The notes beneath the pieces are model-generated. The model was not told where the DNA came from. It did not search any database and saw nothing but the letters and a program-made list of their open reading frames with translations. A stretch of 64,000 nt of DNA from a candidate division WS6 bacterium OLB20 (GTDB lineage Bacteria; Patescibacteriota; Dojkabacteria; B142; OLB20), in NCBI GenBank assembly GCA_001567355.1, contig JYNZ01000003.1:402263-466262 (forward strand), given 5' to 3'. How positions within the stretch are numbered: position 1 is the stretch's first letter; each line of letters opens with the position of its first letter. Shown here in pieces: positions 5,729 to 59,387 of this stretch. Position numbers and translations under genes: made by a program.

Positions 5729-5801
5729 GGGCCAGTAGCTCAGTGGTTAGAGCGCCGTTCTTATAAAGCGGTGGTCGGTGGTTCAATTCCACTCTGGCCC
5801 A
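5729..5801 (+). tRNA. tRNA with anticodon UAU (tRNA-Ile reading AUA). No CCA is encoded.
   Basis: GGGCCAGTAGCTCAGTGGTTAGAGCGCCGTTCTTATAAAGCGGTGGTCGGTGGTTCAATTCCACTCTGGCCCA. Acceptor 7 bp is perfect; D-stem GCTC/GAGC; anticodon stem CCGTT/AGCGG with loop CTTATAA; T-loop TTCAATT. The only consistent 5+7+5 anticodon arm places TAT at positions 34-36. Confidence 0.7.
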
Positions 5802-12597: not shown

Positions 12598-12599
12598 GA

Positions 12600-14951: not shown

Positions 14952-15184
14952 GCTGCAGGATTAACTATGACTGTAAGGACCAGTACTAGAAACAACAGTA
15001 TAACATGCAGGAGCGCATAGATCATGATCGGAACCCGCAGTCCTGTCTTGATCAGACGACTGGTAAGGACTGTCTGCCTTACGATTACGAGCATGGTCAG
15101 AAGCAGCAGCACCATATAGACTATAGCAGCTATCTTTCCGACTGCAAGAATAAATACATATTCTGCTCCGTTTAAATCCGTCAT
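14948..15184 (-). CDS. Small hydrophobic membrane protein (78 aa), uncertain.
   Basis: The ORF is fully hydrophobic (two TM helices), overlaps neighbouring genes by 4 nt at both ends, and is co-directional with them. Confidence 0.3.
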   Translation of the reverse strand: MTDLNGAEYVFILAVGKIAAIVYMVLLLLTMLVIVRQTVLTSRLIKTGLRVPIMIYALLHVILLFLVLVLTVIVNPAA

Positions 15185-15837: not shown

Positions 15838-15894
15838 GGCTTATTGTATCAGGCGGACGGGATATGTTCCACAAGAGAACGTTTTGAGCAGATA

Positions 15895-29427: not shown

Positions 29428-30152
29428 AATTAGTGCGACTGCTTATAAACTCGGTATTAAAGCATCCATTTGCTGCGTTGAAACTTATTTCTCTCAGACC
29501 ATCCGAAGTATCACTCAAACGCTTCCTGTCTGTTTTTGTTACAGCGTCAATAGCCGCACCCAAAAACAGCTTCTACTCCAAAGATATAGTTAGGCTTTGC
29601 CAACTAACACTAATACCTTTCATCATTGATAGCAAACTCGATGAGTCCAACTATTTTCGATTTGGAGTTGATCTAGCAATTGAAAAACTTCAGAAGGATC
29701 TAGAAGTTCGCATTAATGACTTGAAGCTCAGCCAAGAGGAGACTCAAGTTGTCAACAAAGAGATAAGAAACTTAATCGCACATGACTTTTTAGCTAATGA
29801 ATCAGATACTATATCTTCATATCTAATGCACTCAACTTATACAATCGGATTAATATTTGTTACCAGGTCTTTAACGTCTGTTCATCAAGATGAATACGAT
29901 TTAGGCTTTCTAATCGAGTGTTCTAAACTTATTAGATACCTTAGTGATCGCGCAACTATCGAGAAAGATAAATCTGAGAAGAGGAATAATCTATCCAACT
30001 ACATTAATAAACAAGAAATCAATCATAGAATTTATACTTCTTCGAAAAAAATCGAGCAATACAAGATAACTTCGGTGACAGAGCAATTTCTGTACAACAT
30101 TGCAAAATTGAGCCTCATTTTCTATAAGAACAAAGACTTTGAGTACGTATGA
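29424..30152 (+). CDS. Hypothetical all-alpha protein (242 aa), encoded in AT-rich DNA. Its start overlaps the upstream stop by 4 nt.
   Basis: ORF with an ATGA overlap to the QW-repeat gene. No TM. I could not confirm canonical DDxxD or NSE/DTE terpene synthase motifs. Confidence 0.45.
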   Translation: MKLVRLLINSVLKHPFAALKLISLRPSEVSLKRFLSVFVTASIAAPKNSFYSKDIVRLCQLTLIPFIIDSKLDESNYFRFGVDLAIEKLQKDLEVRINDLKLSQEETQVVNKEIRNLIAHDFLANESDTISSYLMHSTYTIGLIFVTRSLTSVHQDEYDLGFLIECSKLIRYLSDRATIEKDKSEKRNNLSNYINKQEINHRIYTSSKKIEQYKITSVTEQFLYNIAKLSLIFYKNKDFEYV

Positions 30153-32140
30153 TATTTGGAAATAGAAAAAAGAAGCCAGCAGGTACACCTGCCCGTAAAC
30201 TGCTTGATGCTAATCTATTAGCTAGTCAGCTTGATGCTGTTCAGGCCGTCTCAAGTGTTCTTATCAAGCAAACAGACCTTGACGAGACCCTTTCTGTCAT
30301 AGTCAATCAGCTCGGTGAGAAGCTCCACTATATAAACCCTGTTATCTATCTCTTAAATGACTCACGTTCCTCTATCTCGGTTCGGAAGGTGAATGTCCCC
30401 AAAGCTATTGTCGCTCTAACAAATAGAATAGTTGGCAAGTCAGTATATGATGTCAACTTTGATCTAGATTCAAACAATACCCTTGCGAAAGCAATTCGCA
30501 GTAGCGAGATTCAAATATCCGATGACTTCTCAGAGGTTTTTCATCCCTATCTGAATAGTTTTGCTGCAAAGACGATCCAAACAGCATTAAATATAAAACG
30601 AGTTATCATTTCTCCAATTAAGGTCGATGATGTGCCGATCGGATGTCTATCAATCGGATCACGAAGTGATGAGGTTGAATCGTCAGAAATAACCACCTTA
30701 CAAACATTTTCTGCACAAATTAGTATTGCGATATATAATTCTCAACAGTTTGAAAATATAGCCCAACAGAAGAACAACCTCGAATCCCTCTTCAACCTCA
30801 CCAGCTCTATCAGTCAGACACTTGACCCGAACAAGGTTACGCAGACTGCTGTCAACACGATCCCGATGAACGATGAGCTGGTAGGGATAACTGTATCGAC
30901 ATATGATCCGGATACAAAACTTATTGTCCCGCAGGCTACCACCCAGGGCGACCTTGCCAGACGCGCTGAAGAGGTGATCGGTTCATTCAAACAGTATGCA
31001 CTTGATCTGTCCAACCCTGATCACCGCTCCAACATGATAGTGCAGACAATCAAAGACGGCACACCGAAGGAAAGCGACCACCTGTCTTCAGTTGTCAGTC
31101 CTGTCATGCCAAAGGCTCTGGTTGACGGACTCAACCGGCTGCTCAAGATCAACAAGGTCATCGCCTACCCCCTGCAATCCCGTGGCGAGCCTATAGGCGT
31201 CATTGTGTTTTACATGCGGCTCAAGGAAGAGAACGCCTTTACACCTGAAAAACAGCAGCTGTTTGAGACATATGCATCCCAGATCAGCATTGCACTTGAA
31301 AACGCACTTCTGTACACACAATCAGAAGAGATCACACAGAACCTGCGCGAAGCCAGACGTCGCGAACGTGATATGGTCGATGTCATGGGACACGAGCTGC
31401 GAACACCGATTTCTATTGTGCGCAATGCCCTGCTGACCCTCGAAAAAGACTACCAGGAGGATAACAAGGTCGAAGATCAGGAGAAGCTGGGTAAATACCT
31501 ATCCATGGCAATCGAGTCCACCAAACGAGAGGTCCGGCTGATTGAGACCATGCTTTCTGCCACTAAAGTTGAGGGGAACAAGATTCAGCTTGATTTCGGC
31601 AAGGTTGATATGCTGGATGTGATAGATGATGCTATTGAGGCATTAAAGCCACTTGCAGATGATAAGAATCTGCCTATTGTCTACGCCCGGCCACAGGTCG
31701 ACTATTTTGCGTACGCTGATCGAGTGCGTACACAGGAGATCATGGATAATATTCTCAGCAATGGCATCAAGTATACAGCCAGCGGTGAGGTGCGAATAAG
31801 TATCCGCAAAGACAAAGGGAAGATCTGGGTTGATGTTTCCGATACAGGTATAGGATTACACGAGGAAGACAAGGCACAGCTTGGTAAAAAGTTCTTCCGG
31901 GCTAAAGCGATGTTCAGCGATAAACCCGGCGTGGTTCAGCCAAGCGGCACAGGTCTGGGACTGTTTGTCACCTTCAACCTGATAGAGCTTATGAACGGTG
32001 ATAAGACCATTAAGAGCGAACCCGGCAATGGCTCAGTCTTCAGCTTTGGCCTGCCGGAGTTTACCGGTCAGAAGGAGCAGCATCTGCAGGAGGCGATGCT
32101 TGGCAAAACTTCAAAGCCAGCTGACGCCCGATCTGACTGA
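30149..32140 (+). CDS. Cytoplasmic sensor histidine kinase with tandem GAF domains; paralogue of the 23590..25977 kinase core.
   Basis: No TM. Two GAF-like regions. H-box MGHELRTPISIVRNAL. HATPase boxes LSNGIKYT, DTGIGL, GTGLGL. The kinase core is ~65% identical in protein to the other HK. No adjacent response regulator. Confidence 0.85.
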   Translation: MIFGNRKKKPAGTPARKLLDANLLASQLDAVQAVSSVLIKQTDLDETLSVIVNQLGEKLHYINPVIYLLNDSRSSISVRKVNVPKAIVALTNRIVGKSVYDVNFDLDSNNTLAKAIRSSEIQISDDFSEVFHPYLNSFAAKTIQTALNIKRVIISPIKVDDVPIGCLSIGSRSDEVESSEITTLQTFSAQISIAIYNSQQFENIAQQKNNLESLFNLTSSISQTLDPNKVTQTAVNTIPMNDELVGITVSTYDPDTKLIVPQATTQGDLARRAEEVIGSFKQYALDLSNPDHRSNMIVQTIKDGTPKESDHLSSVVSPVMPKALVDGLNRLLKINKVIAYPLQSRGEPIGVIVFYMRLKEENAFTPEKQQLFETYASQISIALENALLYTQSEEITQNLREARRRERDMVDVMGHELRTPISIVRNALLTLEKDYQEDNKVEDQEKLGKYLSMAIESTKREVRLIETMLSATKVEGNKIQLDFGKVDMLDVIDDAIEALKPLADDKNLPIVYARPQVDYFAYADRVRTQEIMDNILSNGIKYTASGEVRISIRKDKGKIWVDVSDTGIGLHEEDKAQLGKKFFRAKAMFSDKPGVVQPSGTGLGLFVTFNLIELMNGDKTIKSEPGNGSVFSFGLPEFTGQKEQHLQEAMLGKTSKPADARSD

Positions 32141-32837
32141 CAAATTCCTCCATCAACGGCATCTCAGCATCAAAGGTTCTTTTCTCTAGATGGGTAAAGT
32201 AAACAGCTCCGTAAACCTTTGCCTCGTATAGAATTGGTAACCCTGCGGAGTAACGCGACTTACTGAATTTCTGCATTAGTTCTGTAAAATTTCTACTCAT
32301 CGCTCCTACAGTGAAATTGTAGTTATAATCCGAATAGTATTTCTTTTTTTCTTTTACAACCCTGACTAAATAGTTATCGGGATGTTCAGTGAGCGACACG
32401 GACAAACTTGTTAGGTTTTTTCCCAACCTTCCGATCGTGATCAATGCCAGATTAGTTCTGCTGAAAGCACTGACTCGTAATCTGTCTCCATCCACAAGCA
32501 GCAATACTACAATAGAAAATCCCAGCACTTTTGCCACCTCATCAACGGCGTATTGTAGTAGCTCATCCGTATTCAGTATTCCTTCCAGATTATTTATTAT
32601 ATTCAACAGCTTTGAGGGCGTATCAAACACAATCCCGAATAGATCACCAAGCTCTAAATCTGACAAGCTGAGATGATCAGCGATTTTGAGTATAGTCTCC
32701 TTCGTAGGATTATTTACACCGTTCTCTATCCGCGACAGACTCCCCGGCGACGCGCCAATCGCCATCTCAAGGTCAAGCTGGCTTACACCCGCACGTTTGC
32801 GGTAGGTCCTGATTTTATCGCCGACTGATTCGCTCAT
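32061..32837 (-). CDS. XRE-family HTH transcription regulator fused to a GAF-like sensor domain.
   Basis: N-terminal YRKRAGVSQLDLEMAIGASPGSLSRIENG is a Cro/C1-type HTH. The C-terminal ~180 aa are GAF-like. The 3' end overlaps the convergent HK 3' end by ~80 nt, so one of the two ends may be shorter. Confidence 0.65.
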   Translation of the reverse strand: MSESVGDKIRTYRKRAGVSQLDLEMAIGASPGSLSRIENGVNNPTKETILKIADHLSLSDLELGDLFGIVFDTPSKLLNIINNLEGILNTDELLQYAVDEVAKVLGFSIVVLLLVDGDRLRVSAFSRTNLALITIGRLGKNLTSLSVSLTEHPDNYLVRVVKEKKKYYSDYNYNFTVGAMSRNFTELMQKFSKSRYSAGLPILYEAKVYGAVYFTHLEKRTFDAEMPLMEEFVSQIGRQLALKFCQASPPADAAPSDR

Positions 32838-33618
32838 GGTTAAGTTTGAATAACTCCTCCTTTGAAAGTAATTTTAGTAATCCCCTGATCATATCTGCGA
32901 TCTGCTTCATCATTTTCTCAAGTGCTCTGGCTTCGTTCTGATTAAACGATGCGAGCGATTCCTTCCGTGCGATAGTGAGTGCCCCATACACAGTATTCTC
33001 ATCAGCAATCGGTAACGCAATAAAGGATTTAAGCCCGATTGTGCTTGCAATCAGTTTGCACTGCATCTTCGTAAGCGGTGGCGAAGCAAAATCTGAAAGT
33101 ACTTCACCAGTAAACATCCTGTTTTCATCAACACATTGTTTGGTATATGTATCAAGGTTATCCAGACTCTGTGGGTTGAACGACAATTGATCCAGAATGT
33201 ATTTAAAAGCAAAATCCACTGCCGGACCGGTCGAGAAGTATCGCAGGTGAAGTGCATTCAGATCCTGATCAAAATAGGAGAATGCTATACCTTTGTATCC
33301 AAGCTTGTTTTGAATCTCAGTCAACTTCTCTCCGAGAGCGTAATCCACGACTTTACCCGAAAGCATTGCCCGTATGCCCTGCAGTGAGTCTTCAAACTGT
33401 TCGATGGAGAGATCTATATCAAAGAGTCCGGCTGTTTCAACCGCGTCAAGCTTCAGTACATCTGCAATATTGAGAAGCGTCTCTTTGGTCGGGTTAACAA
33501 TACCGTTCTCAATCCGCGACAGACTCCCCGGCGACGCGCCAATCGCCATCTCAAGGTCAAGCTGGCTTACACCCGCACGTTTGCGGTAATCACGGATAAT
33601 GCTGCCCAGATCATGCAT
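32815..33618 (-). CDS. XRE-family HTH plus GAF-like regulator; tandem paralogue of the previous gene.
   Basis: The first ~30 codons are identical at the DNA level to the neighbouring paralogue (about 85-bp repeat at 32720-32805 and 33500-33585). The C-terminal sensor domain has diverged. Confidence 0.65.
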   Translation of the reverse strand: MHDLGSIIRDYRKRAGVSQLDLEMAIGASPGSLSRIENGIVNPTKETLLNIADVLKLDAVETAGLFDIDLSIEQFEDSLQGIRAMLSGKVVDYALGEKLTEIQNKLGYKGIAFSYFDQDLNALHLRYFSTGPAVDFAFKYILDQLSFNPQSLDNLDTYTKQCVDENRMFTGEVLSDFASPPLTKMQCKLIASTIGLKSFIALPIADENTVYGALTIARKESLASFNQNEARALEKMMKQIADMIRGLLKLLSKEELFKLNHERISRR

Positions 33619-33694: not shown

Positions 33695-34375
33695 TTATTC
33701 TGCTACAGTGTTAACCACCTTCTCAACACATGCTGATGTTCTACAGTCGCATCGTATTGTATAACACTGAGGTTGGCCGGGATCAGGGCGCGTTGCAGGA
33801 CAAACCTGATATTCCTCGATATCGTCCGACGCTCCTGGATTGGAGCAGTTATTAGTACAGACAAATCGATCGTTCTCATTGCACGCGAGTACCTGCCCTA
33901 CATAGGAACCACCTGTACAGACCTGCGGGAAGAAGAACGTAAATCCGGGATCACGAAGGTTTTCATAGCAGCTTGCATCCTCGGCAATCAGCCCTTGCAT
34001 CAATGTTGCTGATATCGGGTATGCAAGAAAGTACAGGAGCAGACCGATAACCCACTGCCCTGCACGCTTTTTAGCGATCTCAACCTTGCTCTGGTCGCCG
34101 GCACTTGTCAGGTAGATTCCACCGATTACAACCAGCAGCACCATAAAGACAATGCCTCCAAACGCCCAGGCGGCATATATTACCCGGGTGACAAGATACT
34201 GCAGTTCACGGATTGTGGGTGGTTCGCAGGGTTCACTGCTCTCGAGGGAGCACGGCTCAGAGACCTGAGCCGATGCCGGCTCTGCTGAGATGAACAACGG
34301 CAGCACAACAACTATCAGTACAAGCAGTACCGGGTATGCACGCTTAATAAGTGTTGCAAACCGTTGCACAGTCAT
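33695..34375 (-). CDS. Pilin-like protein 1: signal peptide, two-helix hydrophobic hairpin (TrbC/VirB2-like topology), Cys-rich C-terminal ectodomain (12 Cys).
   Basis: Signal peptide ends ASAQ. Hairpin VIYAAWAFGGIVFMVLLVVIGGIYL - TSAGDQSKVEIAKKRAG - QWVIGLLLYFLAYPISA. The Cys-rich tail follows. Confidence 0.55.
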   Translation of the reverse strand: MTVQRFATLIKRAYPVLLVLIVVVLPLFISAEPASAQVSEPCSLESSEPCEPPTIRELQYLVTRVIYAAWAFGGIVFMVLLVVIGGIYLTSAGDQSKVEIAKKRAGQWVIGLLLYFLAYPISATLMQGLIAEDASCYENLRDPGFTFFFPQVCTGGSYVGQVLACNENDRFVCTNNCSNPGASDDIEEYQVCPATRPDPGQPQCYTIRCDCRTSACVEKVVNTVAE

Positions 34376-34935
34376 CAGTTTGTGATAGGATCGATGCAGT
34401 CCGGTTCTGTGATGTCATCCGGATCAGTTGCAGCCTGGTACAGCGCCTCACATGAATTACACAGAGCCTGACTGTCATCCACTTCACCGGTGCACGATCT
34501 GCAGCCCTCACTGTTAGGCGCGGACAGACATACCTGGTAAAGTGCCGGATCCGGTCTGTTGGCTCCAAAGAAGACAAAGACAAGAACAATACCGACAATT
34601 GCAATAAGCATCGCACCAATACCAAAAAAGATCGCCTGGATGGCTTTTTGCGCCTCCTCTATCTTACCGGCATCTCCCTGAGACTGGATATACTTAATAG
34701 CAGCCATGATCGCATATACCACAGCGATCAGGACAACTGCTCCAAGAGCAAGCACAAGTCCAAGCTGAATACGGCTGGTAACAAAACCCGAAGCACCGAT
34801 ACCTTCTTCTCCAAGCAGACCAAAGATGTCGCCTATCTGATCAGGCAGAAGACTCTGCGCCTGAACTGGCAGTATCATAGCTGCTCCAAGCAGAATCGAC
34901 AGAGATAAAAACGCTCCCGTTATGTACTTTTTCAT
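34375..34935 (-). CDS. Pilin-like protein 2 (copy A of the tandem triplication).
   Basis: Signal peptide (..VQAQ). Core QLGLVLALGAVVLIAVVYAIMAAIKYIQSQGDAGKIEEAQKAIQAIFFGIGAMLIAIVGIVLVFVFF is identical to copies B and C. Distinct Cys-containing C-terminal tail. Confidence 0.6.
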   Translation of the reverse strand: MKKYITGAFLSLSILLGAAMILPVQAQSLLPDQIGDIFGLLGEEGIGASGFVTSRIQLGLVLALGAVVLIAVVYAIMAAIKYIQSQGDAGKIEEAQKAIQAIFFGIGAMLIAIVGIVLVFVFFGANRPDPALYQVCLSAPNSEGCRSCTGEVDDSQALCNSCEALYQAATDPDDITEPDCIDPITN

Positions 34936-34953
34936 GCGAGATAAAAATAATTA

Positions 34954-35559
34954 TTAATTTTCTGCACAGATGCCACCGGCATAGTTGCGCAACGCTGTTG
35001 TAAGCTGAGAATATGACCAGTTGTCCTGCACCTGTGTCTCAAAAAACTCCTCACACTGACCGCAGGCTGTATTTGTTCGTGCTCCGCGGGTACCTGGATC
35101 TTCTCCTGCAAGGCACGACTCACAGCCTTCACTGTCCGGGGACGTCAGGCACACCTGGTAAAGTGCCGGATCCGGTCTGTTGGCTCCAAAGAAGACAAAG
35201 ACAAGAACAATACCGACAATTGCAATAAGCATCGCACCAATACCAAAAAAGATCGCCTGGATGGCTTTTTGCGCCTCCTCTATCTTACCGGCATCTCCCT
35301 GAGACTGGATATACTTAATAGCAGCCATGATCGCATATACCACAGCGATCAGGACGACCGCCCCAAGAGCAAGGACAAGTCCAAGCTGGATACGGCTGGT
35401 AACAAAACCTGCCGAGCCCGAACCGCCGGGTCCAAGCAGGTTGAAGATATCAGCTATCTGACCGGGCAGCAAGCTCTGAGCCTGAACGGTAGTTACACCT
35501 GTCAGCAGGAGCAGCATTGTGGTGGACAGAAGCAGAAGTTGTTTCGTCCGTCTGATCAT
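34954..35559 (-). CDS. Pilin-like protein 3 (copy B).
   Basis: Same hairpin core. About 200 bp are DNA-identical to copy A (34535-34733 vs 35155-35353). The tail differs (...CESCLAGEDPGTRGARTNTACGQCEEFF...). Confidence 0.6.
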   Translation of the reverse strand: MIRRTKQLLLLSTTMLLLLTGVTTVQAQSLLPGQIADIFNLLGPGGSGSAGFVTSRIQLGLVLALGAVVLIAVVYAIMAAIKYIQSQGDAGKIEEAQKAIQAIFFGIGAMLIAIVGIVLVFVFFGANRPDPALYQVCLTSPDSEGCESCLAGEDPGTRGARTNTACGQCEEFFETQVQDNWSYSQLTTALRNYAGGICAEN

Positions 35560-35564
35560 CGTGT

Positions 35565-36170
35565 TTAAGGCTCGTCACACTCATCTGGAATAGTCGTCCC
35601 GCTTGCCTCTGAGTCACAGTTGCTGCCGTTTCTGGCAAGACAGTCGTATGCAGCCTCACACTGACCGCACAATGTATTGGAATATGTTCCATCCGCATCT
35701 GTTGCAGCATCATTATTTAGACATGATTCACAGCCGGCGCTGTTAGGCGCGGACAGACATACCTGGTATAGAGCTGGATCAGGTCTGTTGGCTCCAAAGA
35801 AGACAAAGACAAGAACAATACCGACAATTGCGATAAGCATCGCACCAATACCAAAAAAGATCGCCTGGATGGCTTTTTGCGCCTCCTCAATCTTACCGGC
35901 ATCACCCTGGGACTGGATATATTTAATGGCAGCCATGATCGCATATACAACAGCGATCAGGACAACTGCTCCAAGAGCAAGCACAAGTCCGAGCTGAACA
36001 CGGCTGGTGACAAAGTTTGCAGACCCGGAACCTTCCGGTCCGAGCAGATTGAAGATGTCTCCTATCTGATCAGGCAGAAGACTTTGTGCAGATACTGCTG
36101 CAGGCATTGTCACAAACAGCACCAGAAAGAAGCTGAGTGCGCTGAAAACAAGAAACGATCGTTTGTTCAT
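35565..36170 (-). CDS. Pilin-like protein 4 (copy C).
   Basis: Same core with a few synonymous or near-synonymous changes. Different tail (...CESCLNNDAATDADGTYSNTLCGQCEAAYDCLARNGSNCDSEASG...). Confidence 0.6.
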   Translation of the reverse strand: MNKRSFLVFSALSFFLVLFVTMPAAVSAQSLLPDQIGDIFNLLGPEGSGSANFVTSRVQLGLVLALGAVVLIAVVYAIMAAIKYIQSQGDAGKIEEAQKAIQAIFFGIGAMLIAIVGIVLVFVFFGANRPDPALYQVCLSAPNSAGCESCLNNDAATDADGTYSNTLCGQCEAAYDCLARNGSNCDSEASGTTIPDECDEP

Positions 36171-36234
36171 GGCGTATGTAAAAAATGTTTAAACTCAGTC
36201 TAGTCTATTTGGCAGCTAATGTTAAGGTTTGCGC

Positions 36235-36789
36235 TTAAAGAAAAGTGTAGCTTAGGTTTTCGCAGCGGTCCTCAAATCTGAAAAACTCATTGAGCGGAAC
36301 ATCACTGACATCCAGATGGTCCCACTCCTGATCAGAACCCAGTCCGCCAGTTCTGCAGCACGCTATGGCATACTCTCTGCGCTCATCATCTGCGATCTCA
36401 GGTTGCATCTCCAGCTCAATGTAACGGAACTTGAACTCCGAATCAGCCCCTCCGCACTGTGCAAGATTGCTGCTCCATGAATAGATATCCCCCACTCCGG
36501 TAAACACTCCAATCAGCGACAGTACAATCAGAAACCCGAGAAACATGGCGATCCCGATCCAGATATTCTTGATCACTGTCATTCCACCCTGGATACCGTC
36601 CGGATTACCGGCGCTGGTGATAATTTTGATTCCTGCGTAGATGCTGAAGACAACCCAGACAACAAGCATCACCGAAAACAGAAGCGAGATAAACAGAGCG
36701 ATCACTGACAGGACGCCTCCGTTAAGCAGCCCCCCGACATTAGGGAGAAATAACGAGATACCGCCAATATCAACCTGACCAGTCAGCAT
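36235..36789 (-). CDS. Pilin-like protein 5. Hairpin core diverged. C-terminal Cys-containing acidic domain.
   Basis: 184 aa. Hairpin LSVIALFISLLFSVMLVVWVVFSIYAGIKIITSAGNPDGIQGGMTVIKNIWIGIAMFLGFLIVLSLIGVF. No clear cleavable signal peptide. Confidence 0.5.
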   Translation of the reverse strand: MLTGQVDIGGISLFLPNVGGLLNGGVLSVIALFISLLFSVMLVVWVVFSIYAGIKIITSAGNPDGIQGGMTVIKNIWIGIAMFLGFLIVLSLIGVFTGVGDIYSWSSNLAQCGGADSEFKFRYIELEMQPEIADDERREYAIACCRTGGLGSDQEWDHLDVSDVPLNEFFRFEDRCENLSYTFL

Positions 36790-36805
36790 AGTCGTTTTTT
36801 AAAAG

Positions 36806-37525
36806 TTAATCCCTGTATGGCTCCCAGCTGCCACCGCGGCAGATGTAATTACGAACCCCATCTACAGACGGGTCAGCATCGACATAACCGAATGATCCGT
36901 CGCCGCATGCCTCAGTCAGCTCTGCAGAAGTCAGTTCGAGCGGTACAAGATTAAAGTCAAACAGGTTCTGTGCCACGCCGAGCAGCATGGCGATTATCTG
37001 GATGATGAGTATCCCCATGGTTGAAACAACAACACCGATGATCGCGTTCTGGAATATTTTTGCAGATTCCTCCACCTTGTCCGGACTCTCACCCGCGGTT
37101 GTCCGCACCACCATACCGTATATCCCCATCACGATTGCGGCAACCGATATCACACCCATGACTGCGTAGAGGAACATCCTTATCAGACTCGGTATCGCAC
37201 GCTCAGGCGGACCGAAGTTGATACCGGCAAAATTGACATTGTCTTCAACCTCCGCAATTGCCTGCTCAACCTCTTTGCACTTGGAAGGATCTTCTTTTTC
37301 ACACCCCTCACCTGCCTCGATACATTTATACTGACACAGCAGACTGCACTCAGCCTGAGGATCAGTAAAGAGAAGCGCGGAACAGTTAGGATCGACAACC
37401 AGATCAGTGGGCTCGTTTGCGCTGTTGACATCAGTCGGCCTGTCAATAATTGTGCAGCCCACAGCAAACAGCAGCAGTGCTGCAGCAATACCAATTAGTT
37501 TGAAGTTAACCTTCATATCAGCCAC
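36806..37525 (-). CDS. Pilin-like lipoprotein 6: Cys-rich N-terminal domain, hairpin, then a C-terminal domain.
   Basis: Lipobox LLLFAVGC. Cys-rich block CSALLFTDPQAECSLLCQYKCIEAGEGCEKEDPSKC. Hairpin MFLYAVMGVISVAAIVMGIYGMVV...ESAKIFQNAIIGVVVSTMGILIIQIIAML. Confidence 0.5.
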   Translation of the reverse strand: MADMKVNFKLIGIAAALLLFAVGCTIIDRPTDVNSANEPTDLVVDPNCSALLFTDPQAECSLLCQYKCIEAGEGCEKEDPSKCKEVEQAIAEVEDNVNFAGINFGPPERAIPSLIRMFLYAVMGVISVAAIVMGIYGMVVRTTAGESPDKVEESAKIFQNAIIGVVVSTMGILIIQIIAMLLGVAQNLFDFNLVPLELTSAELTEACGDGSFGYVDADPSVDGVRNYICRGGSWEPYRD

Positions 37526-37898
37526 CGATCAGCTGCACACCAAACAGTGCGGAAATAATACCGACAACAACAGGTGCAACAAGAATGATAATAAATCCGA
37601 TTACGGCGAACGTGAGGATCTTTTTTGCCTGCGCCACTTTTTCGTCAGACCCGGCGGCAGTAAGGTATGTAAAACCGCCGTAGATAATCATTGCCAGAAA
37701 CGCAAGTGTCGCCACGGGTATGATAAATGCGCTCAGTGTCGAGAAAATTGACCCGATATCGCTGAACAGCGAGTTTAGCGGGTTCTGAATCGTATTCGGT
37801 CCGTCTGTAGCAGGTGTCGGAGAGGCCGCATTAACAGCACTTACACCAGCAGCAGCAAACAGTAAGATAGCGGCAAGAATGTTTGTGAGTACTTTCAT
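37518..37898 (-). CDS. Pilin-like protein 7 (minimal form). Start taken at MKVLTNIL; the ORF is open to 38024.
   Basis: Signal peptide MKVLTNILAAILLFAAAGVSAVNAA. Hairpin FIIPVATLAFLAMIIYGGFTYLTAAGSDEKVAQAKKILTFAVIGFIIILVAPVVVGII. No ectodomain. Confidence 0.5.
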   Translation of the reverse strand: MKVLTNILAAILLFAAAGVSAVNAASPTPATDGPNTIQNPLNSLFSDIGSIFSTLSAFIIPVATLAFLAMIIYGGFTYLTAAGSDEKVAQAKKILTFAVIGFIIILVAPVVVGIISALFGVQLIGG

Positions 37899-37941
37899 AC
37901 TACCTAGAGTAGCAGACAGAAACGGTGGCAGCAATACTCTG

Positions 37942-39135
37942 CTATTGCAGGAAGTCCAACGGCAGAATGCCGAGAACATTAATACCCAGAAACCGCAGGA
38001 TGACAACAGCGCCAAGTAGTACAATCAGGGCAATAATTGCTGAACTGACAATCTCTTTTGCCTCACGGATCTGCTCGGGATTATCAGTTTGCATCATAAT
38101 GGCTGCCTGGATAAAGCGCAGGATCATGACACCGCCGATTATACCGATACCGATTTGAAACAGCCTGGTTACTATCCCGTTGAGTGATACATCCCAGCAG
38201 CCAAGAGCGTTCCACACAAAGAAACCCTCATCCGCCTCATCGAGATTGCGGGCCACACAGGCGCGACACTGTGTACGCTCCTCCGCATTTTCTTCCGGAA
38301 TATTATCACACCCTTTACTCAACTCACCGGCATCAGGATCTATCGGAGCCGACGCATCTACCAGATTGCCATCTACGCATCTTCTCGTTGCATCGTTCGG
38401 GTCAAGCTCATTGTTGTTGATACAGTAGGCTCCGTTTGCCTCACACGCTGATTCTGATTCAAACGTCTCGGCGGGGTTCATGCGGTCACCATTGAGTACT
38501 CGGCAGTTTCCTCCGCCACCGCACCACCAGAGGGTTTCTGTTTCAATTAAATGGTTTGACCCTTCAAGCCCCCAGATGCTGCTGAGGTCACGATCCTGCT
38601 CTGCGGGTACTGAACTGTTATCTGGACGATAACACTTTCCATCACTATCACTGACGATGCTGTCGTTCGGATCCGGACAGCACAAAAGATCATACGTCAG
38701 GTGAATACCCTGGGGCTGAAGAATGAGATTCGGATGAGACTCGGGACAACACCTGGCTGCACCTCCATACGCCAGGAGCCCGGATGGACTCTTGTCAGCT
38801 ACATATCCATCAAAACATACGTTAAATACCCAGCCGCCCGCATGACTCCAGACCGAATTTACTTCTGTGATATTGCTCAATGCGCAGTGTCTGTTGCCTT
38901 CCACAATGATATTCCGTTCTTCAGAGGAGTTTAAATCATCTGCAAAAAGGTTATTCTCAAGAAAATAATCACCCAGAGGACCAAGCGTTGATGACGGACA
39001 CATGTTCTCGTCACTCACACAACCTGCAGCCAGCGCCTGTGATGATGTAAGGACTGCGACAACGAACACGACTGAAGATACGATAAGGAGCTTCAACGCA
39101 ATCCCTTGAAGGGAGAGTTTATGACCTGACAACAT
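37942..39135 (-). CDS. Pilin-like protein 8: large Cys-rich extracellular domain (~300 aa, ~30 Cys) fused to a C-terminal hairpin module.
   Basis: Signal peptide ..SSQALAAG. Many CxxC/CC pairs. C-terminal LFQIGIGIIGGVMILRFIQAAIMMQTDNPEQIREAKEIVSSAIIALIVLLGAVVILRFL. The ORF is open to 39171, overlapping the 3' end of the Clp-like gene. Confidence 0.55.
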   Translation of the reverse strand: MLSGHKLSLQGIALKLLIVSSVVFVVAVLTSSQALAAGCVSDENMCPSSTLGPLGDYFLENNLFADDLNSSEERNIIVEGNRHCALSNITEVNSVWSHAGGWVFNVCFDGYVADKSPSGLLAYGGAARCCPESHPNLILQPQGIHLTYDLLCCPDPNDSIVSDSDGKCYRPDNSSVPAEQDRDLSSIWGLEGSNHLIETETLWWCGGGGNCRVLNGDRMNPAETFESESACEANGAYCINNNELDPNDATRRCVDGNLVDASAPIDPDAGELSKGCDNIPEENAEERTQCRACVARNLDEADEGFFVWNALGCWDVSLNGIVTRLFQIGIGIIGGVMILRFIQAAIMMQTDNPEQIREAKEIVSSAIIALIVLLGAVVILRFLGINVLGILPLDFLQ

Positions 39136-41449
39136 CAATTTTCTCCAGCGAAGTAATATGCAGTCTGTCACCGTAATCCAGATTGCCGGCGACGATCAGT
39201 TTAGCGATCTTGTTTTCGACCTCGTCCTGAATCACACGTCGAAGTTCGCGAGCGCCGTAGACCGGGTTGTAACCTTTTCGGGCAAGTTCTTCGAGCAGCT
39301 GCGGCGTGTAGGTCAGAGTTATACCTTTCTCTTCCAGTGTTTTAGCCTGCTTCTGCATCATTATCTCAGCGACTTTTTGCACCTCAAGCGGTACAAGCGG
39401 TCTGAATAGAATCACTTTATCAAATCTGTTGAGGAATTCAACGCGCAGGTACTTTGCCAGGATCGGCTGCACCTGTTTTCTGATCTGCTCGTATGGTGTT
39501 CCCCTGGTGGTCAGTTCTGATATCTCGCGGGTACCAACGTTTGAGGTGGCAATAATTATGGTATTGGTAAAATCAACCTTTCTGCCCAGGCCGTCGGTCA
39601 TGCTTCCCTCGTCCAGCACCTGCAGAAACAGGTCCAGTACGCGGGGATTAGCCTTCTCGATCTCGTCAAGCAGCAGGAGCGAGTACGGACGGTTGCGCAC
39701 AGCCTCGGTCAGATAGCCTCCTTCAAACCGGCCGTCGACAGACTTGCCGATCAGGCGGTCAAGATTTGTCTCCTCCTGATACTCAGACATATCGAGCCGG
39801 ATCATCAGTTTTTCGTCTCCGTAGTAAACCGCGGTCAGTGCCTTTGAAAGCTCTGTTTTACCGACACCGGTAGGACCAAAAAACAGAAACGTGGCGATCG
39901 GACGCTTGCCGCTGACAAGTCCAGCCCTGGATCTGCGCATTGCATCAGCAACAGCCTGGACTGCCTCTGTCTGACCGATCAGCCGCTGGTGCAGTTTTTC
40001 CTCCAGATTAACAAGCAGCTCGGACTCGCGGCTGTCGATCGCACCAACTTTGACACCCACCTTGGCAGAGATCACCTCTTCAATCAGCTGCTCGTTAGCA
40101 AACTCAAGTCCTCTACTGCGAGCACTGACCATAACCTCTTCGAGCAGATCGATTCCTTTGTCGGGCAGCACTTTTTCAAAGGCAAACGTATGCGAGAGTT
40201 TTACCAGCCGCACAAGCGCATCAAAACTGACACGAACACCGTAGCGCAGCTCCATCGCGGGCAGCACATCCATCAGAATCTGAACTGCTACAGGGTCTGA
40301 TGGCTCTTTAACCTCAACCAGTTTAAATGATGATGCCAGACCACGTTCTGTCTTGATCTTCTGGTTGTAGCCTTCGGGAGTTGAGACGGCAATCACGCGC
40401 AGATGATAACGGTCCATTGCGCTGACGATAAGATTGACGACTTCGGATGCGATCTCTCTGCGGATGTTAAGCACCTGGTCAAAATCATCAAGGACCAGAA
40501 TGATATTGCCTGCCGACGCTGTCTCCTCAAGTACATTCTGTACACGGGACTTGAACACCTCAACGGTCGGCGCCAGTGAAAACGCCCGGTTAAAATCAAA
40601 TGCCACAAGACGCTTGTCACGAAGTATCGGTGGAACGTCCTCTACCACCATGCGTGTCGCGAGACTGTTCACAAGCGTTGTACGGCCGACTCCGGGCTGA
40701 CCCACTAGCAGTACAGCGCTGGCATCACCCTCCTCAAGATAACTGATCACCTGGTTCAGCTCACCCTCGCGTGCAATCGAGTATGTAAAGTCACCCTTAA
40801 CTGTTTCGGCAGTGAAATCGCGCTGAAACTGAACGAGCACCGGTGAGTATCGTGATGTAAACGCCCTGTTGACTGTAGAAACGGGCTTCAGTGCACGTTT
40901 GGCGTAGAACTCGTCCTTATAGCGTCTGATATCACTTTTATTTTTAAGCCACATACCAAGCGCCTCAACCTCATCCGGCAGAACATTTACACTCTTAAGC
41001 TCCTGCGCAAGGGGCTTCTGCATCAGAAAGAGGAAAAACGCCATCTCATCCACACTGTTAAGGCGCAGATCGTATGACAGCTGAAACGTACTGATCAGCA
41101 CCTGAACAAGCCATGAGTCGATGTGAGTATCGCTTGCCAGGTTGTGCTTTGCCGCCAGTTCAAGCAGCGACCGCTTTTCGAGGCCAAGACGGGCAGCCGC
41201 TTTCTGCACATTGGCATAGCGCAGCACCTCGTGTATCAGCAGTGTCAGAAAGTCCTGCTCACCTGTCCCGGCCAGATCATCAAGAACATTAAGCAGATCA
41301 TGATCTATATACTCCGTTATTTCGATCTCTTCGGGAAGATTACCCTGATTGATCTGTTCTCTAAGTCCCGAAAGCTTTTTCAGTCGCAGAGTATCGACAA
41401 ACAGTGCACGGTTGCGTCTGAGAAACATTGCATACAGATACAGCAGCAC
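39119..41449 (-). CDS. ClpC/ClpB-family Hsp100 AAA+ ATPase with two nucleotide-binding domains and a non-canonical ~230-aa N-terminal region.
   Basis: D1 LLVGQPGVGRTTLVNSLA with IILVLDDFD. D2 FLFFGPTGVGKTELSKAL, LLLLDEIEKANPRVLDLFLQVLDEGSMTD, sensor-2 GARELRRVI. The N-terminus lacks recognisable Clp_N repeats. The annotated start is GTG, immediately after the C6 run at 41451-41456. Confidence 0.85.
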   Translation of the reverse strand: MLLYLYAMFLRRNRALFVDTLRLKKLSGLREQINQGNLPEEIEITEYIDHDLLNVLDDLAGTGEQDFLTLLIHEVLRYANVQKAAARLGLEKRSLLELAAKHNLASDTHIDSWLVQVLISTFQLSYDLRLNSVDEMAFFLFLMQKPLAQELKSVNVLPDEVEALGMWLKNKSDIRRYKDEFYAKRALKPVSTVNRAFTSRYSPVLVQFQRDFTAETVKGDFTYSIAREGELNQVISYLEEGDASAVLLVGQPGVGRTTLVNSLATRMVVEDVPPILRDKRLVAFDFNRAFSLAPTVEVFKSRVQNVLEETASAGNIILVLDDFDQVLNIRREIASEVVNLIVSAMDRYHLRVIAVSTPEGYNQKIKTERGLASSFKLVEVKEPSDPVAVQILMDVLPAMELRYGVRVSFDALVRLVKLSHTFAFEKVLPDKGIDLLEEVMVSARSRGLEFANEQLIEEVISAKVGVKVGAIDSRESELLVNLEEKLHQRLIGQTEAVQAVADAMRRSRAGLVSGKRPIATFLFFGPTGVGKTELSKALTAVYYGDEKLMIRLDMSEYQEETNLDRLIGKSVDGRFEGGYLTEAVRNRPYSLLLLDEIEKANPRVLDLFLQVLDEGSMTDGLGRKVDFTNTIIIATSNVGTREISELTTRGTPYEQIRKQVQPILAKYLRVEFLNRFDKVILFRPLVPLEVQKVAEIMMQKQAKTLEEKGITLTYTPQLLEELARKGYNPVYGARELRRVIQDEVENKIAKLIVAGNLDYGDRLHITSLEKIDVVRS

Positions 41450-41706
41450 TCCCCCCAGAAAACCGCATCAGCAATTCGATCCGGATTGAGCACCTCAAAC
41501 GGCAGAAACCTCCCCTGAAGAAAATCGTACGCCAGCAGCGATCCCAGGGTCAGCAGAAGAACCGCCATCAACAGACGTGACAGTGCTTTCTCCGCTGTTT
41601 CTGTCTCACGTCTGAGGCCATGCTCCTTAAACAGATAGTCCCAGTTCAGGGTTAGCGGCACCCCCTTAAACATTCCTACTGTTTCCTTGCCCTTACGTAA
41701 TCGCAT
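41380..41706 (-). CDS. Small ORF. It may be the 5' extension of the Clp-like gene (a TM-containing N-terminus) if one G is missing from the G6 run; otherwise a small membrane protein.
   Basis: 108 aa with TM LLMAVLLLTLGSLLAY. Inserting one G into the G6 run fuses it in frame to the Clp ORF (AVFWGGVLLYLYAMFLRRNR...). Confidence 0.3.
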   Translation of the reverse strand: MRLRKGKETVGMFKGVPLTLNWDYLFKEHGLRRETETAEKALSRLLMAVLLLTLGSLLAYDFLQGRFLPFEVLNPDRIADAVFWGECCCICMQCFSDATVHCLSILCD

Positions 41707-42064: not shown

Positions 42065-43834
42065 GTGGCAGTCATGCATATTCATGGGTACAGTGGTATA
42101 ATCAGCTGCCAAGTAAAACGCGCCATGAAGAACCTGAAACGCAACCTGCACAAGTATGCAACCGAGATTTATTTTCTTGCGCTGTCGCTGATCATCTTTG
42201 TTCCCCTGCTTCGGCCCGGGTACGTTCTTACGCTGGATCTGATCTTTACACCCCGGATGCATTACCAGTACACCAATTCGCACGGTCTCTACAGCGAGAC
42301 TGCTCGTGATGCCGTTCTTAATCTGCTTGCGAGGATCGTCGATGCCAGTGTGATAGAAAAGCTTCTTCTGATGCTGCTGTTTTTCTGTATCGGTTACTTT
42401 ATGTACCGGTTTCTGCTGCAGCTGCGCAAACGCAACCGCAGTTATGCGATTGTTGCCGCAACGCTGTATATGTGGAATCCGTTCACTTACTCGCGTCTTC
42501 TTGCCGGTCACTGGGCATTTTTATGCGGCTACGCGCTGCTGCCTGTCTTTATGTGGGGACTGCATCACTTCTACCGCCAGAAAAAAATCTCCAACAGACT
42601 GCTGATCGCCTGCTCGGTATCATGGTTTGTGGCAAGCCTTGTCAGTGTTCATTTTCTGCTGCTGTTTGCAGTACCGTTTGCTGTATATACAGTACTGCAC
42701 ATGTTCACCTATGTGCGCTGGGACCGGACTGCAGCCCGTGCCGTAGCTCTGCTGGCATTTATCACGCTGTTTTCACTCAGCTGGATTGTACCCTCGCTTC
42801 TGATAAGCGATGTATCACGCCTGGGTCCGCTGCATCTGATCTTTTTCGCTCCCACTCCCGACCTTCAGTACGGTCTTACCTTTAATCTGCTCAGCATGTA
42901 CGGTTTCTGGGCCGAGAGCACCATCGGCACCATGCCAAAGGAGCTGATCACCGTCTGGCCCCTTCTGACACTGGTTCTGTTAATCATTGTTGCGGCTCCG
43001 CTGATCCGTGCAGGCGGTGATCTGCTTGCCATCAAGAAAAACAAATCCTACAGCAGGACACAGCGTCTGCTGATCGGATCCCTGTTTATCACCGGACTGC
43101 TTGGACTCGTTCTTGCGCATGGCTCTACAGGGTTTATGCAGCCTGTCTGGGATTACCTCTACAATACCGTTCCGGTTCTGCAGCCGTTCCGTGAAGTACA
43201 GAAGTTTCTGCTGCTGTACGTGTTTGCAGCAACCGTTCTGTTCTATTATGGCCTTGACGCTGTTGCCGACCTGATCAGGGAGGGGGTACGTTCTGTCCGG
43301 TCGCGCTTTACAATTGATGCAGAACGGATCACCGCCTTTTCGGGTCTGATACTCGTAATCCTGATTACACCATTGCTTGGTTTTGCCGCTGCAGGGCAAC
43401 TGCAGACAACACAGTATCCCCGGTCCTGGTACCAGCTTGAGGAGGAGCTTACAGAGCGCGCGACCGAGGGGCGTATTCTGGTACTGCCGTGGCGCGCCTA
43501 TGCCGAGTTTCCGTTCAGCAGCAGACAGATTGCTGACCCGTCACGGTCATTTTTCAGCGGTTATGTAATCAGTGAACGTGTTCCGGCCTATCTGCGCTCA
43601 ACCATCGAATGCGAAATTGAATTTACAGAAATTCACCGCAACGAAGTGATCCGCCTCTGCCTCGGCAGTGACTCTGACAAGCAGGACTGGATCAGCCAGG
43701 TCAAACTTAACAGCATCGATTATGTCGTCTTCAACAAAGTTCAGGCCTTCAAGGTTAATGACTTCTTTAATGATGAGGAACACTTTCAACTCATCTATTC
43801 GGATAACTATGCGGATATCTACCGGGTGTTATAA
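42065..43834 (+). CDS. Polytopic integral membrane protein, GT-C-type glycosyltransferase-like (YfhO/PMT-like topology). The true start is probably the Met at 42125.
   Basis: At least 11 TM helices. First extracytoplasmic loop has acidic residues (TLDLIF...SETARDAV). Blocks TLDLI, LYMWNPFTYSRLLAGHWAFLCGYALLPVFMWGL align to the N-terminal domain of the 49001..52660 paralogue. Confidence 0.55.
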   Translation: MAVMHIHGYSGIISCQVKRAMKNLKRNLHKYATEIYFLALSLIIFVPLLRPGYVLTLDLIFTPRMHYQYTNSHGLYSETARDAVLNLLARIVDASVIEKLLLMLLFFCIGYFMYRFLLQLRKRNRSYAIVAATLYMWNPFTYSRLLAGHWAFLCGYALLPVFMWGLHHFYRQKKISNRLLIACSVSWFVASLVSVHFLLLFAVPFAVYTVLHMFTYVRWDRTAARAVALLAFITLFSLSWIVPSLLISDVSRLGPLHLIFFAPTPDLQYGLTFNLLSMYGFWAESTIGTMPKELITVWPLLTLVLLIIVAAPLIRAGGDLLAIKKNKSYSRTQRLLIGSLFITGLLGLVLAHGSTGFMQPVWDYLYNTVPVLQPFREVQKFLLLYVFAATVLFYYGLDAVADLIREGVRSVRSRFTIDAERITAFSGLILVILITPLLGFAAAGQLQTTQYPRSWYQLEEELTERATEGRILVLPWRAYAEFPFSSRQIADPSRSFFSGYVISERVPAYLRSTIECEIEFTEIHRNEVIRLCLGSDSDKQDWISQVKLNSIDYVVFNKVQAFKVNDFFNDEEHFQLIYSDNYADIYRVL

Positions 43835-52660: not shown

Positions 52661-52997
52661 GCGGATAAAATCAGGAGTACGTACTGTACTGTCTAACAGC
52701 CAGTACACAGCGCTTGTTATTTACACGGTCGCCCTCTTTCTGCTGGGTGGCTTCAGTCTGCCGGTAAAGATCATTCTGGCTCTGGGGGCCGCATCGCTCA
52801 TCTATGCGATTCCTGTTACAGCCATTCTTGTCTTTACCCTGCTGTACACTGCACTGCTTCTGATCACAGGCCGCTTCTCACAGACAGAACAGATAACCGA
52901 GCTGTATTTTGCAGTTTGCGTGTATGTTGTGGTTGAGATGGCACATATTGCTGTGCGCTACTTTGTAAAGCGCACACAGAAGCTACTTGAGCCCTGA
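52629..52997 (+). CDS. GtrA-like small 4-TM membrane protein (possible polyprenyl-phosphate-sugar translocase partner). The ORF is open from 52584.
   Basis: ~120 aa, 4 hydrophobic helices. It overlaps the 3' end of the GT-C gene, suggesting translational coupling. Size and topology match the GtrA family. No motif-level confirmation. Confidence 0.35.
   Translation: MQLNAMAPVTERIKSGVRTVLSNSQYTALVIYTVALFLLGGFSLPVKIILALGAASLIYAIPVTAILVFTLLYTALLLITGRFSQTEQITELYFAVCVYVVVEMAHIAVRYFVKRTQKLLEP

Positions 52998-57740: not shown

Positions 57741-59387
<1,647 letters not shown>

Follow-up and report, generated by a model that had tools for sequence, protein, structure and literature searches.

An ordered array of predicted, divergent type IV secretion pilins with cysteine-rich ectodomains beside a Clp-like ATPase in a Dojkabacteria genome

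We describe an array of eight genes in a 64-kb stretch of the genome of the WS6 (Dojkabacteria) bacterium OLB20, hereafter the window, and compare it with the closest systems on record, the VirB2-like pilin arrays that Patescibacteria encode for type IV secretion systems (T4SSs). A survey that screened 3,035 Patescibacteria genomes for PF18895, PF04956 and the CONJScan pilin profiles recovered 441 VirB2 arrays from 383 assemblies; an array holds 2-11 genes, and identity within arrays averages 25% and is at most 54%. Its authors compared them with the virB2 arrays of Bartonella and Anaplasma (Quinonero-Coronel et al. 2025, PMC12102498). A pilin gene lay near virB4 in only 1135 of 1948 assemblies, and two Dojkabacteria assemblies entered in the accessible part of the survey's genome table are both scored VirB4-positive (PMC12102498). 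In Southlakia epibionticum, epibiotic growth requires a series of predicted pilins encoded within the T4SS cluster (Wang et al. 2023, PMC10633639). According to a 2025 review this organism has six VirB2-like pilins; no pilus has yet been observed in any Patescibacterium, and reviews speak of a 'potential' to make pili (PMC12857230). Few gene sets have been shown to be indispensable to the epibiotic life of Patescibacteria, and T4SS pilin arrays belong to them. In a Gram-positive setting, the VirB2-like PrgF of pCF10 is reported to be essential for conjugation, and its assembly into a pilus has been confidently predicted by modelling, with support from mutagenesis and labelling (ter Beek et al. 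2025 preprint, bioRxiv 10.64898/2025.12.18.695078).

The OLB20 array resembles the published Patescibacteria arrays in its relation to PF18895, in its tandem and sequence-divergent hairpin pilins, and in belonging to a monoderm, ultra-small bacterium. The six pilins of S. epibionticum may be set against the six gene classes that we distinguish in OLB20 (named g8, g7, g6, g5, g2-4 and g1 after the genes of the array), and both sets are chromosomal with no relaxase nearby. Unlike the published arrays, that of OLB20 is not next to virB4 and is strictly linked to a membrane-anchored Hsp100-like ATPase. Five of its six classes are fused to predicted disulfide-rich ectodomains of 60-300 aa, whereas the survey treats pilins as small and mentions no such fusions; its g2-4 paralogues are 67-83% identical overall and about 100% identical in the core, against the within-array maximum of 54% in the survey. 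The initial annotation of this stretch had proposed an uncharacterised family, a description that no longer fits, as VirB2-like pilin arrays of Patescibacteria have already been published (PMC12102498, PMC10633639, PMC12857230). The underlying idea, that tandem T4SS pilin paralogues serve host contact, appears correct and is already on record for the phylum. Our literature search found no account of Dojkabacteria arrays, of pilins fused to Cys-rich domains or of a Clp-type partner, and no prior description of the fixed six-class order, the Cys-rich ectodomains, the amplification by core and tail, or the ATPase linkage reported here.

Pilins of the TrbC, VirB2 and TraA type have a long signal peptide and a pair of hydrophobic helices; the short charged loop between the helices faces the cytoplasm or the pilus lumen, and both termini are exposed. 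The OLB20 hairpins match this topology, known from the structures of F- and T-pili, but have no significant profile match to these pilins and show no sign of cyclisation or of accessory genes; the large terminal domains present in OLB20 are not a feature of TrbC, VirB2 or TraA. The virB2 arrays of Anaplasma and Bartonella stand within or beside a full virB locus and are interpreted as a source of antigenic or host-range variation. They are like genes 2-4 of OLB20 in their tandem amplification and in the variation of exposed parts; in OLB20, however, the majority of copies belong to ancient orthologous classes whose Cys scaffolds are conserved, and the bacterium is not known to encounter an immune system. 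PrgF and the proteins of family NF045849 are, like those of OLB20, small signal-peptide-plus-hairpin proteins of bacteria without an outer membrane, but they are encoded in single copy, without ectodomain fusions, and on conjugative elements rather than in a chromosomal array.

The eight genes follow one another on the minus strand and overlap or nearly abut, with spacings of -17 to +64 nt (Table 1). Hydropathy and inspection show in all eight products two long hydrophobic segments around a short K/E-rich loop, in which the K and R residues are concentrated and in which class alignments reveal a common motif, roughly [ST]xxG[DN]xxK…AK. An eight-gene array of two-helix hairpins, as first annotated, is thus borne out by open reading frame (ORF) calls, hydropathy and profile homology. 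The expectation that every gene would begin with a signal peptide or lipobox holds for seven of the eight (…VQA/QS, …ASA/QV, …VNA/AS, …ALA/AG, the slash marking the predicted processing site, and the lipobox-like …AVGC). Inspection of gene 5 found no signal peptide in OLB20; its orthologues in two of the related loci described below (L003 and L005) do have one. The mature proteins of genes 1 to 8 contain 12, 6, 6, 8, 4, 8, 0 and 18 Cys, respectively. A Cys-rich extension had been expected on almost every copy and is present in seven genes, gene 7 being Cys-free and without one; the figure of about 30 Cys in about 300 aa was too high for the window, where the maximum is 18 in about 290 aa, and 30 is reached by an orthologue in L003.

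Several of these genes correspond to annotated ones: gene 8 is 100% identical to TR69_WS6001000811 (annotated start at 39135), gene 4 is 100% identical to TR69_WS6001000807, and genes 3 and 2 are TR69_WS6001000806 and 805. For gene 7 the true start is almost certainly the ATG at 37898, as judged from orthologues of 103-138 aa, which are Cys-free in 10 of 12 loci. In gene 1, two Cys precede the hairpin and ten follow it, and the CY…GFxFFF…VC segment is conserved. Consensus scans for promoters and terminators gave no more matches than expected from shuffled sequence and do not define operon boundaries; no Shine-Dalgarno-like motif was seen upstream of most array starts.

Table 1. Positions in the window of the array genes, the ATPase gene and other features named in the text.
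Feature	Position	Strand	Length (aa)	Description
Array	33695-39171	-		Eight consecutive ORFs (ORF listing and translation)
Gene 8 (class g8)	37942-39135	-	397	Signal peptide, ~290-aa N-terminal ectodomain with 18 Cys, C-terminal predicted pilin hairpin
Gene 7 (class g7)	37518-37898	-	126	Short, Cys-free, canonical T4SS_pilin; candidate major subunit
Gene 6 (class g6)	36806-37525	-	236-239	Lipobox-like …AVGC, N-terminal 6-Cys ectodomain, hairpin, short 2-Cys C-terminal tail
Gene 5 (class g5)	36235-36789	-	184	Hairpin, 4-Cys C-terminal tail
Gene 4 (class g2-4)	35565-36170	-	201	Signal peptide, hairpin, compact 8-Cys C-terminal knob
Gene 3 (class g2-4)	34954-35559	-	201	Core shared with genes 2 and 4, own signal peptide, own 6-Cys tail
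Gene 2 (class g2-4)	34375-34935	-	186	Common g2-4 core, own signal peptide and 6-Cys tail
Gene 1 (class g1)	33695-34375	-	226	Signal peptide, 2 Cys, hairpin, CY…GFxFFF…VC segment, variable C-terminal domain
Three direct copies of 300-nt core	34492-34791, 35113-35412, 35721-36020 (span 34492-36020)			DNA identity 91-93%
ATPase, N-terminal piece	41458-41706	-		Basic N-terminus and first hydrophobic segment; ends in linker before the second
ATPase, main ORF	39119-41449	-	776	Opens with second membrane segment, LLYLYAMFL; overlaps gene 8 start
Coupling-protein-like ATPase	8984-11551	-	855	VirD4/TraG/TraD type; Pfam T4SS-DNA_transf, TraG-D_C
Two tandem HTH(XRE)-GAF regulators	32061-33618 (32061-32837, 32815-33618)	-		Pfam HTH_3, GAF_2; directly downstream of array, maybe neighbours only

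In a Pfam scan, gene 7 passes the cut-off of PF18895 (T4SS_pilin; 39.1 bits, cut-off 26.6), and genes 1, 6 and 8 lie just below it (24.8, 25.9 and 25.7 bits, the last over residues 331-395). Genes 2-4 score at most 10 bits with this family, and gene 5 has no match in Pfam. Among 106 homologues of genes 2-4, 61 match PF18895 at E <= 0.1 (best 6.8e-7), which makes it the most frequent family among them. Seven proteins were scanned against NCBIfam, namely every array protein except that of gene 3, so that each paralogue class is represented; all of them have NF045849 (Mbov_0395 family pilin-like conjugal transfer protein) as their top match. Gene 7 reaches 35.2 bits (E 7e-9), the others reach 15-19 bits, and none attains the curated cut-off of 40 bits. 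A tblastn search of plasmids with gene 7 returned a single, weak match (E 0.5), on a Pontibacillus gene annotated as belonging to NF045849, which lies 4 kb upstream of a VirB4-like ATPase of the CD1110 family and a peptidoglycan hydrolase. We also aligned class profiles, built from the window and five related loci, with hhalign. Matches between classes fall exactly over the hairpin, with probabilities of 96.4% (g7 with g5), 97.4% (g7 with g6), 96.6% (g7 with g1), 94.4% (g7 with g2-4) and 98.3% (g5 with g2-4); those of class g8 are weaker, at 65-75% (65% with g7).

These comparisons indicate that the array hairpins are homologous to one another and not chance look-alikes. Because the PF18895 scores, the scan of 106 homologues, the hhalign probabilities and the NF045849 matches agree, the hairpins are best classified, on sequence evidence, as divergent members of the T4SS-pilin superfamily, nearer to the monoderm type than to diderm TrbC/VirB2. 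Direct membership of TrbC/VirB2 (PF04956), which the initial annotation had favoured, is not borne out: the best score, that of gene 1, is 17.2 bits (E 0.006) against a cut-off of 27.9, and six of the 106 homologues of genes 2-4 show weak matches (best E 8.8e-4). The broader assignment of the module as a pilin is upheld by the gene 7 match to PF18895, the top matches to NF045849 and hhalign, and pilin families came first throughout the scans, with no confident match to holins or another unrelated family. A Foldseek search of the PDB with the model of gene 4 gave 0 matches. The labels 'fumarate reductase subunit D' and 'DUF4190' attached to database homologues are not backed by Pfam scans. Under the criteria of the published survey (i-Evalue < 0.001, > 50% profile coverage), genes 1, 6, 7 and 8 alone would count as pilins, and genes 2-5 as non-pilin spacers. 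Surveys that apply profile thresholds under-count such arrays, as half of the OLB20 genes escape PF18895 at standard cut-offs.

We compared the array across 12 distinct loci with enough sequence, which comprise the window, contigs encoding homologues, and loci from genome and metagenome scans that used the N-domain of the upstream ATPase; related loci are designated here by L numbers. When class-specific hidden Markov models were used to assign the genes of each array, the order g8, g7, g6, g5, g2-4, g1 recurred, with few exceptions, in the related loci that extend far enough. L005 lacks class g8 and L009 has two copies of it; L003 is rearranged, with four g2-4 copies placed first and a UvrD-type helicase inserted after the ATPase. 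Positional orthologues of g8 are present in 11 of the 12 loci. Class g8 spans 319-615 aa with 15-26 mature Cys, g7 103-166 aa with none in 10 of 12, g6 113-300 aa with mostly 6-10, g5 164-242 aa with mostly 4, g2-4 162-238 aa with mostly 6, and g1 160-502 aa with 2-30; the tail of g1 is absent in L004 (160 aa) and at its longest, in L003 (502 aa), extends over about 340 aa with 30 Cys. The array flanks differ among loci and include GroES/GroEL, PA14 or DUF11 surface proteins, histidine kinases, CysRS, RmuC and SpoIID. Where an organism is named, the label is mostly Dojkabacteria; automated assignment places two of the loci in Saccharibacteria, and several derive from metagenome contigs.

Conservation of the cassette in relatives, anticipated in the initial annotation, is therefore confirmed across these 12 loci. 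Since class models recover the same gene order from locus to locus, the eight genes represent six old, non-interchangeable classes plus a local triplication, rather than eight hypervariable copies. The comparison with hypervariable paralogues of Rickettsiales T4SSs accordingly applies to genes 2-4 and fails for the other five genes, which belong to old orthologous classes. A fixed set of six classes is a clue in itself, as it resembles the major and minor subunits of other filaments.

We next consider on which side of the membrane the Cys-rich segments lie. A cleaved signal peptide would leave the N-terminus outside and, because the K/R-rich loop lies inside, the C-terminus is predicted to be outside as well. 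The Cys-rich segments, N-terminal in g8 and g6 and C-terminal in g1, g2-4 and g5, all fall on the predicted outer side, so that the predicted topology puts none of them in the cytoplasm. Of 78 array proteins, 66 contain Cys, and in 63 of these the count beyond residue 28 is even (binomial p = 6.5e-16). Topology and even counts together predict that the ectodomains are extracytoplasmic and disulfide-bonded; Patescibacteria/CPR (candidate phyla radiation) genomes are enriched in genes for MdbA-like oxidoreductases and VKOR (PMC6744442). An alignment of eight homologues of class g8 has 13 invariant Cys, the pattern C-x8-C-x2-C…C-x2-C…C is conserved in the g2-4 tail among 106 homologues, and orthologues of g6, g5 and g1 have common Cys columns. 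The ectodomains are thus divergent yet not free-form hypervariable, their orthologues keeping Cys scaffolds.

An AlphaFold2 model of gene 4 has a mean pLDDT (predicted local distance difference test score) of 79.7, with helices at 50-86 and 94-126 and a compact, helix-rich tail whose residues 141-180 are modelled at pLDDT 87-93. The model of gene 8, built from eight homologues, has a mean pLDDT of 47 and does not resolve the fold of the ectodomain. In the gene 4 tail (35565-35760, minus strand), a conserved CxxC…CxxC is placed on two predicted helices, in the manner of disulfide-stapled helical hairpins; vicilin hairpin peptides are the sole hints from PDB sequences, at non-significant E-values of 2.6-9, and offer a loose lead only. 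The same motif may bind zinc.

The g2-4 class shows a contrast between core and tail. Over the 82 core codons, genes 2-4 differ at 6-17 synonymous and 0-1 non-synonymous positions, and the DNA on either side of the core is far less alike (33-44% identity in the signal-peptide part, 49-57% in the tail). At the protein level the cores are 99-100% identical and the tails 33-49%, with that of gene 3 at 33-39% to those of genes 2 and 4. The class has been amplified separately in three genomes, with three copies in OLB20, four in L003, and a further amplification in L004. Within each of these genomes the cores are 96-100% identical, against about 60% between genomes, and have thus evolved in concert; the tails are at 33-64%. 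Because core differences are almost all synonymous and tails have diverged, the pattern implies that the core has been homogenised and kept under strong purifying selection while the exposed tail has diverged. This is what would be expected if the core were a shared packing interface and the tail a displayed specificity module.

Directly upstream of gene 8 lies a gene for a Clp-like AAA+ ATPase that the initial annotation had called atypical; Pfam, NCBIfam, motif comparison and tblastn agree that it is both real and atypical. It occurs in two pieces in OLB20 (Table 1). In tblastn with orthologues of 855-862 aa, 41706-41458 aligns in frame -2 (the first 83 codons) and 41452-39137 in frame -1, and the change of frame falls at six consecutive G near 41450 (window 41440-41470, minus strand). 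Repair of this frameshift, which could be an assembly error, a pseudogene mutation or a slippage-prone tract, gives a protein of about 860 aa. Its Pfam domains (AAA, AAA_lid_9, AAA_2 and ClpB_D2-small) are those of the general two-ring Hsp100 architecture, and the curated models of ClpB (483 bits, cut-off 1232), ClpA (401, cut-off 993) and ClpV (390, cut-off 885) are all missed widely. The Pfam scan found no Clp_N; in its place are about 85 aa with two membrane segments and about 220 aa without a Pfam match. The ClpA model aligns in one stretch, which indicates that there is no long M-domain. According to a motif comparison of orthologues, Walker B of the first nucleotide-binding domain (NBD1) is degenerate (DD, DN or EQ in place of DE), its Walker A lysine is replaced by arginine in the window and in L001, no aromatic pore loop is present in NBD1 and no GYVG in either ring; Walker A and B of NBD2 are canonical. 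No IGF/IGL loop for docking to ClpP was seen by eye.

ClpV of type VI secretion provides a precedent for a ClpP-independent ATPase of the Clp family that is dedicated to secretion. The OLB20 protein is, like ClpV/TssH, ClpB and ClpA, a two-ring Hsp100, here without a ClpP loop (by eye) or a long M-domain; it differs from ClpV, ClpB and ClpA in its membrane N-region in place of Clp_N, in the degenerate Walker B of NBD1 and in the absence of GYVG. A search of 1.84 billion representative proteins with its N-domain of about 220 aa gave 36 relatives (E <= 1e-3), and nearly all of the full-length ones are 822-868 aa long with N-terminal hydrophobic segments. In all 12 loci the ATPase is encoded upstream of the array, with N-domain identity down to 25% and differing flanking genes; the stop codon of its gene overlaps the first pilin gene or lies 4 nt from it in the window, L001, L004 and L005. 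All the loci have a common gene order and probably belong to a single class of bacteria.

Taken together, the evidence leads us to regard it as probable, if well short of certain, that the cassette represents, in Dojkabacteria, the VirB2-like (PF18895) T4SS pilin array of Patescibacteria and that it works in the following way. Each gene would encode a Sec-exported pro-pilin whose helical hairpin sits in the membrane with both ends outward and the K/E-rich loop in the cytoplasm. The short, Cys-free g7 is the likely bulk subunit, and g8, g6, g5, g2-4 and g1 would carry disulfide-bonded domains on their outward N- or C-terminus. Because a helical lattice of the VirB2 type may not easily accommodate a domain of 60-300 aa on each of its subunits, we propose that the ectodomain-bearing subunits are most likely minor, tip or decorating parts of a surface filament or contact structure, which would display binding modules toward the host cell and would depend on a VirB4 machine encoded elsewhere. 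With its identical packing core and diverged tails, the g2-4 triplet could present several surface specificities on one scaffold. The array would be co-transcribed, and is probably translationally coupled, with the membrane-anchored, ClpP-independent Hsp100-like ATPase, which most likely engages the cytoplasmic hairpin loops, either to extract subunits and feed them into assembly or to clear those that remain unassembled.

This reading would make the outward, predicted disulfide-rich domains natural candidates for host recognition, with one class diversifying them over an identical core. The dedicated-looking, membrane-anchored Clp-type ATPase that accompanies the array suggests an energy source or quality control for the hairpin subunits.

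Several points weigh against this reading, among them the lattice difficulty already raised. No VirB4, VirB6, VirB3 or VirB8 domain was found in any sizeable ORF of the window, or within 10 kb of the array in L001-L005, the relatives whose gene tables carried precomputed Pfam hits. The co-occurrence with virB4, virB6 or virB11 that the initial annotation had looked for was thus not seen over this range, and the link to a T4SS machine is therefore drawn from homology and the literature. PDB sequence searches with the profile of genes 2-4 and with gene 7 gave nothing significant. GroES/GroEL are encoded a short way upstream of the ATPase in two relatives (L004 and L005), with one or two small ORFs between, and the ATPase could be the housekeeping disaggregase of the lineage, held in place by synteny within one bacterial class; in the OLB20 window, moreover, it is split by the frameshift.

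The alternative that survives best, which we think unlikely and yet worth serious consideration, is that the proteins are pilin-derived membrane anchors that form no filament, their hairpins tethering disulfide-rich surface domains (adhesins, receptors or envelope-organising proteins) and g7 acting as the membrane component of a channel. Sizeable ectodomains in five of six classes suit a tethered surface protein better than a packed pilus lattice, although within-genome cores that are 96-100% identical argue for a shared packing interface, for which a simple anchor has no need. It is also favoured by the lack of adjacent T4SS machine genes in the window and in L001-L005 and by the fact that no Patescibacterium has so far been seen to bear a pilus (PMC12857230); set against it are the likeness of the fixed six-class set to the major and minor subunit sets of filaments, and the VirB2-like PrgF, which is reported to be essential for conjugation and for which pilus assembly is predicted (bioRxiv 10.64898/2025.12.18.695078).

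A second alternative, which we judge improbable, would dispense with the T4SS altogether: the Hsp100-like ATPase would replace VirB4 as the pilin dislocase of a self-contained module, pulling hairpins from the membrane to build a decorated surface structure. Its appeal lies in the strict linkage of ATPase and array in all 12 loci, with frames overlapping or abutting, in the small size of this membrane-anchored family (36 of 1.84 billion representatives), and in the absence of VirB4 from the neighbourhoods scanned. The linkage, however, could be inherited synteny of one lineage, given that the loci with a named organism are mostly labelled Dojkabacteria and that gene order is shared; the ATPase is frameshifted in OLB20 itself and its pore loops are non-canonical, and the two Dojkabacteria assemblies entered in the accessible part of the survey table are VirB4-positive (PMC12102498). 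If true, a bacterium that lacks an outer membrane would here build a pilin polymer by a route not recognised before, and the resulting structure would bear interchangeable disulfide-rich binding domains. Least probable by a wide distance is an unrelated family of small hairpins (holins, bacteriocin immunity proteins, proteolipids or DUF4190-type proteins) that mimics pilins by hydrophobic composition: genes 2-5 do score at noise level in Pfam, TgpA_N, Holin-X and MpPF26 match at E-values similar to those of pilin families, and some homologues carry the database labels mentioned above, but we rejected each of these identities because pilin families are consistently the top and most frequent matches, gene 7 exceeds the curated PF18895 cut-off, the loop motif is common to the classes, and profile-profile probabilities of 94-98% fall exactly over the hairpin.

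Beyond the cassette, the initial annotation had noted a VirB4/VirD4-family ATPase about 22 kb from the array. A VirD4-type, coupling-protein-like ATPase is indeed encoded at that distance (Table 1), with weak NCBIfam matches to TraD and to VirD4-like CD1115; VirB4 is not. Genes for type IV coupling proteins (T4CPs) are abundant in Patescibacteria, rarely near virB4, and non-essential in S. epibionticum (PMC12102498). The gene is therefore weak evidence for a T4SS here, and whether it belongs with the array is uncertain. The block SpoIID…SmpB…T4CP directly follows the array in L005 and is displaced from it by about 16 kb in the window. The two blocks (12142-17664 in the window, 11496-20516 in L005) comprise SpoIID-like, bPH-like, ~800-aa, SmpB and ~180-aa proteins and the coupling-protein-like ATPase. 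In the window an insertion-like stretch separates the SpoIID block from the array and encodes GAF kinases and, among isoprenoid genes, a polyprenyl synthase and a prenyltransferase/squalene-hopene-cyclase-like protein, together with a NUDIX protein.

The tandem HTH-GAF regulators directly downstream of the array have a counterpart in L002, where an HTH-GAF gene follows the array, and none in L001, L003, L004 or L005. GAF histidine kinases at 23590-25977 and 30149-32140 (both plus strand) add to an unusual concentration of GAF regulators by the array; GAF kinases also follow the array in L001 and L002. Divergent from the Clp-like gene is a gene for a predicted surface protein of 939 aa with DUF11/CLIPPER repeats (46135-48954, plus strand), which has the same position in L001 and L002. 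Envelope glycan genes (42065-43834 and 49001-52660, plus strand; 52983-56889, minus strand) lie between GroEL (57741-59363) and the Clp-like gene, and encode GT-C/AftD-like and Wzy_C-like polytopic proteins, GT2/GT4 glycosyltransferases and a flippase.

A predicted surface protein of 722 aa with a pentaxin/LamG lectin-like domain (5811-7979, minus strand) adjoins the coupling-protein-like ATPase. At the start of the window a tyrosine recombinase/integrase gene (4723-5604) lies between tRNA genes, namely those for tRNA-Met(CAT) at 1785-1860 and 4047-4119 and for tRNA-Ile with anticodon TAT at 5729-5801 (plus strand). At the opposite end, a PilM/FtsA-like actin-fold ATPase is encoded at 61827-63083 (minus strand) and may belong to a type IV pilus locus; in L005, too, a PilM-like gene stands upstream of GroES/GroEL.

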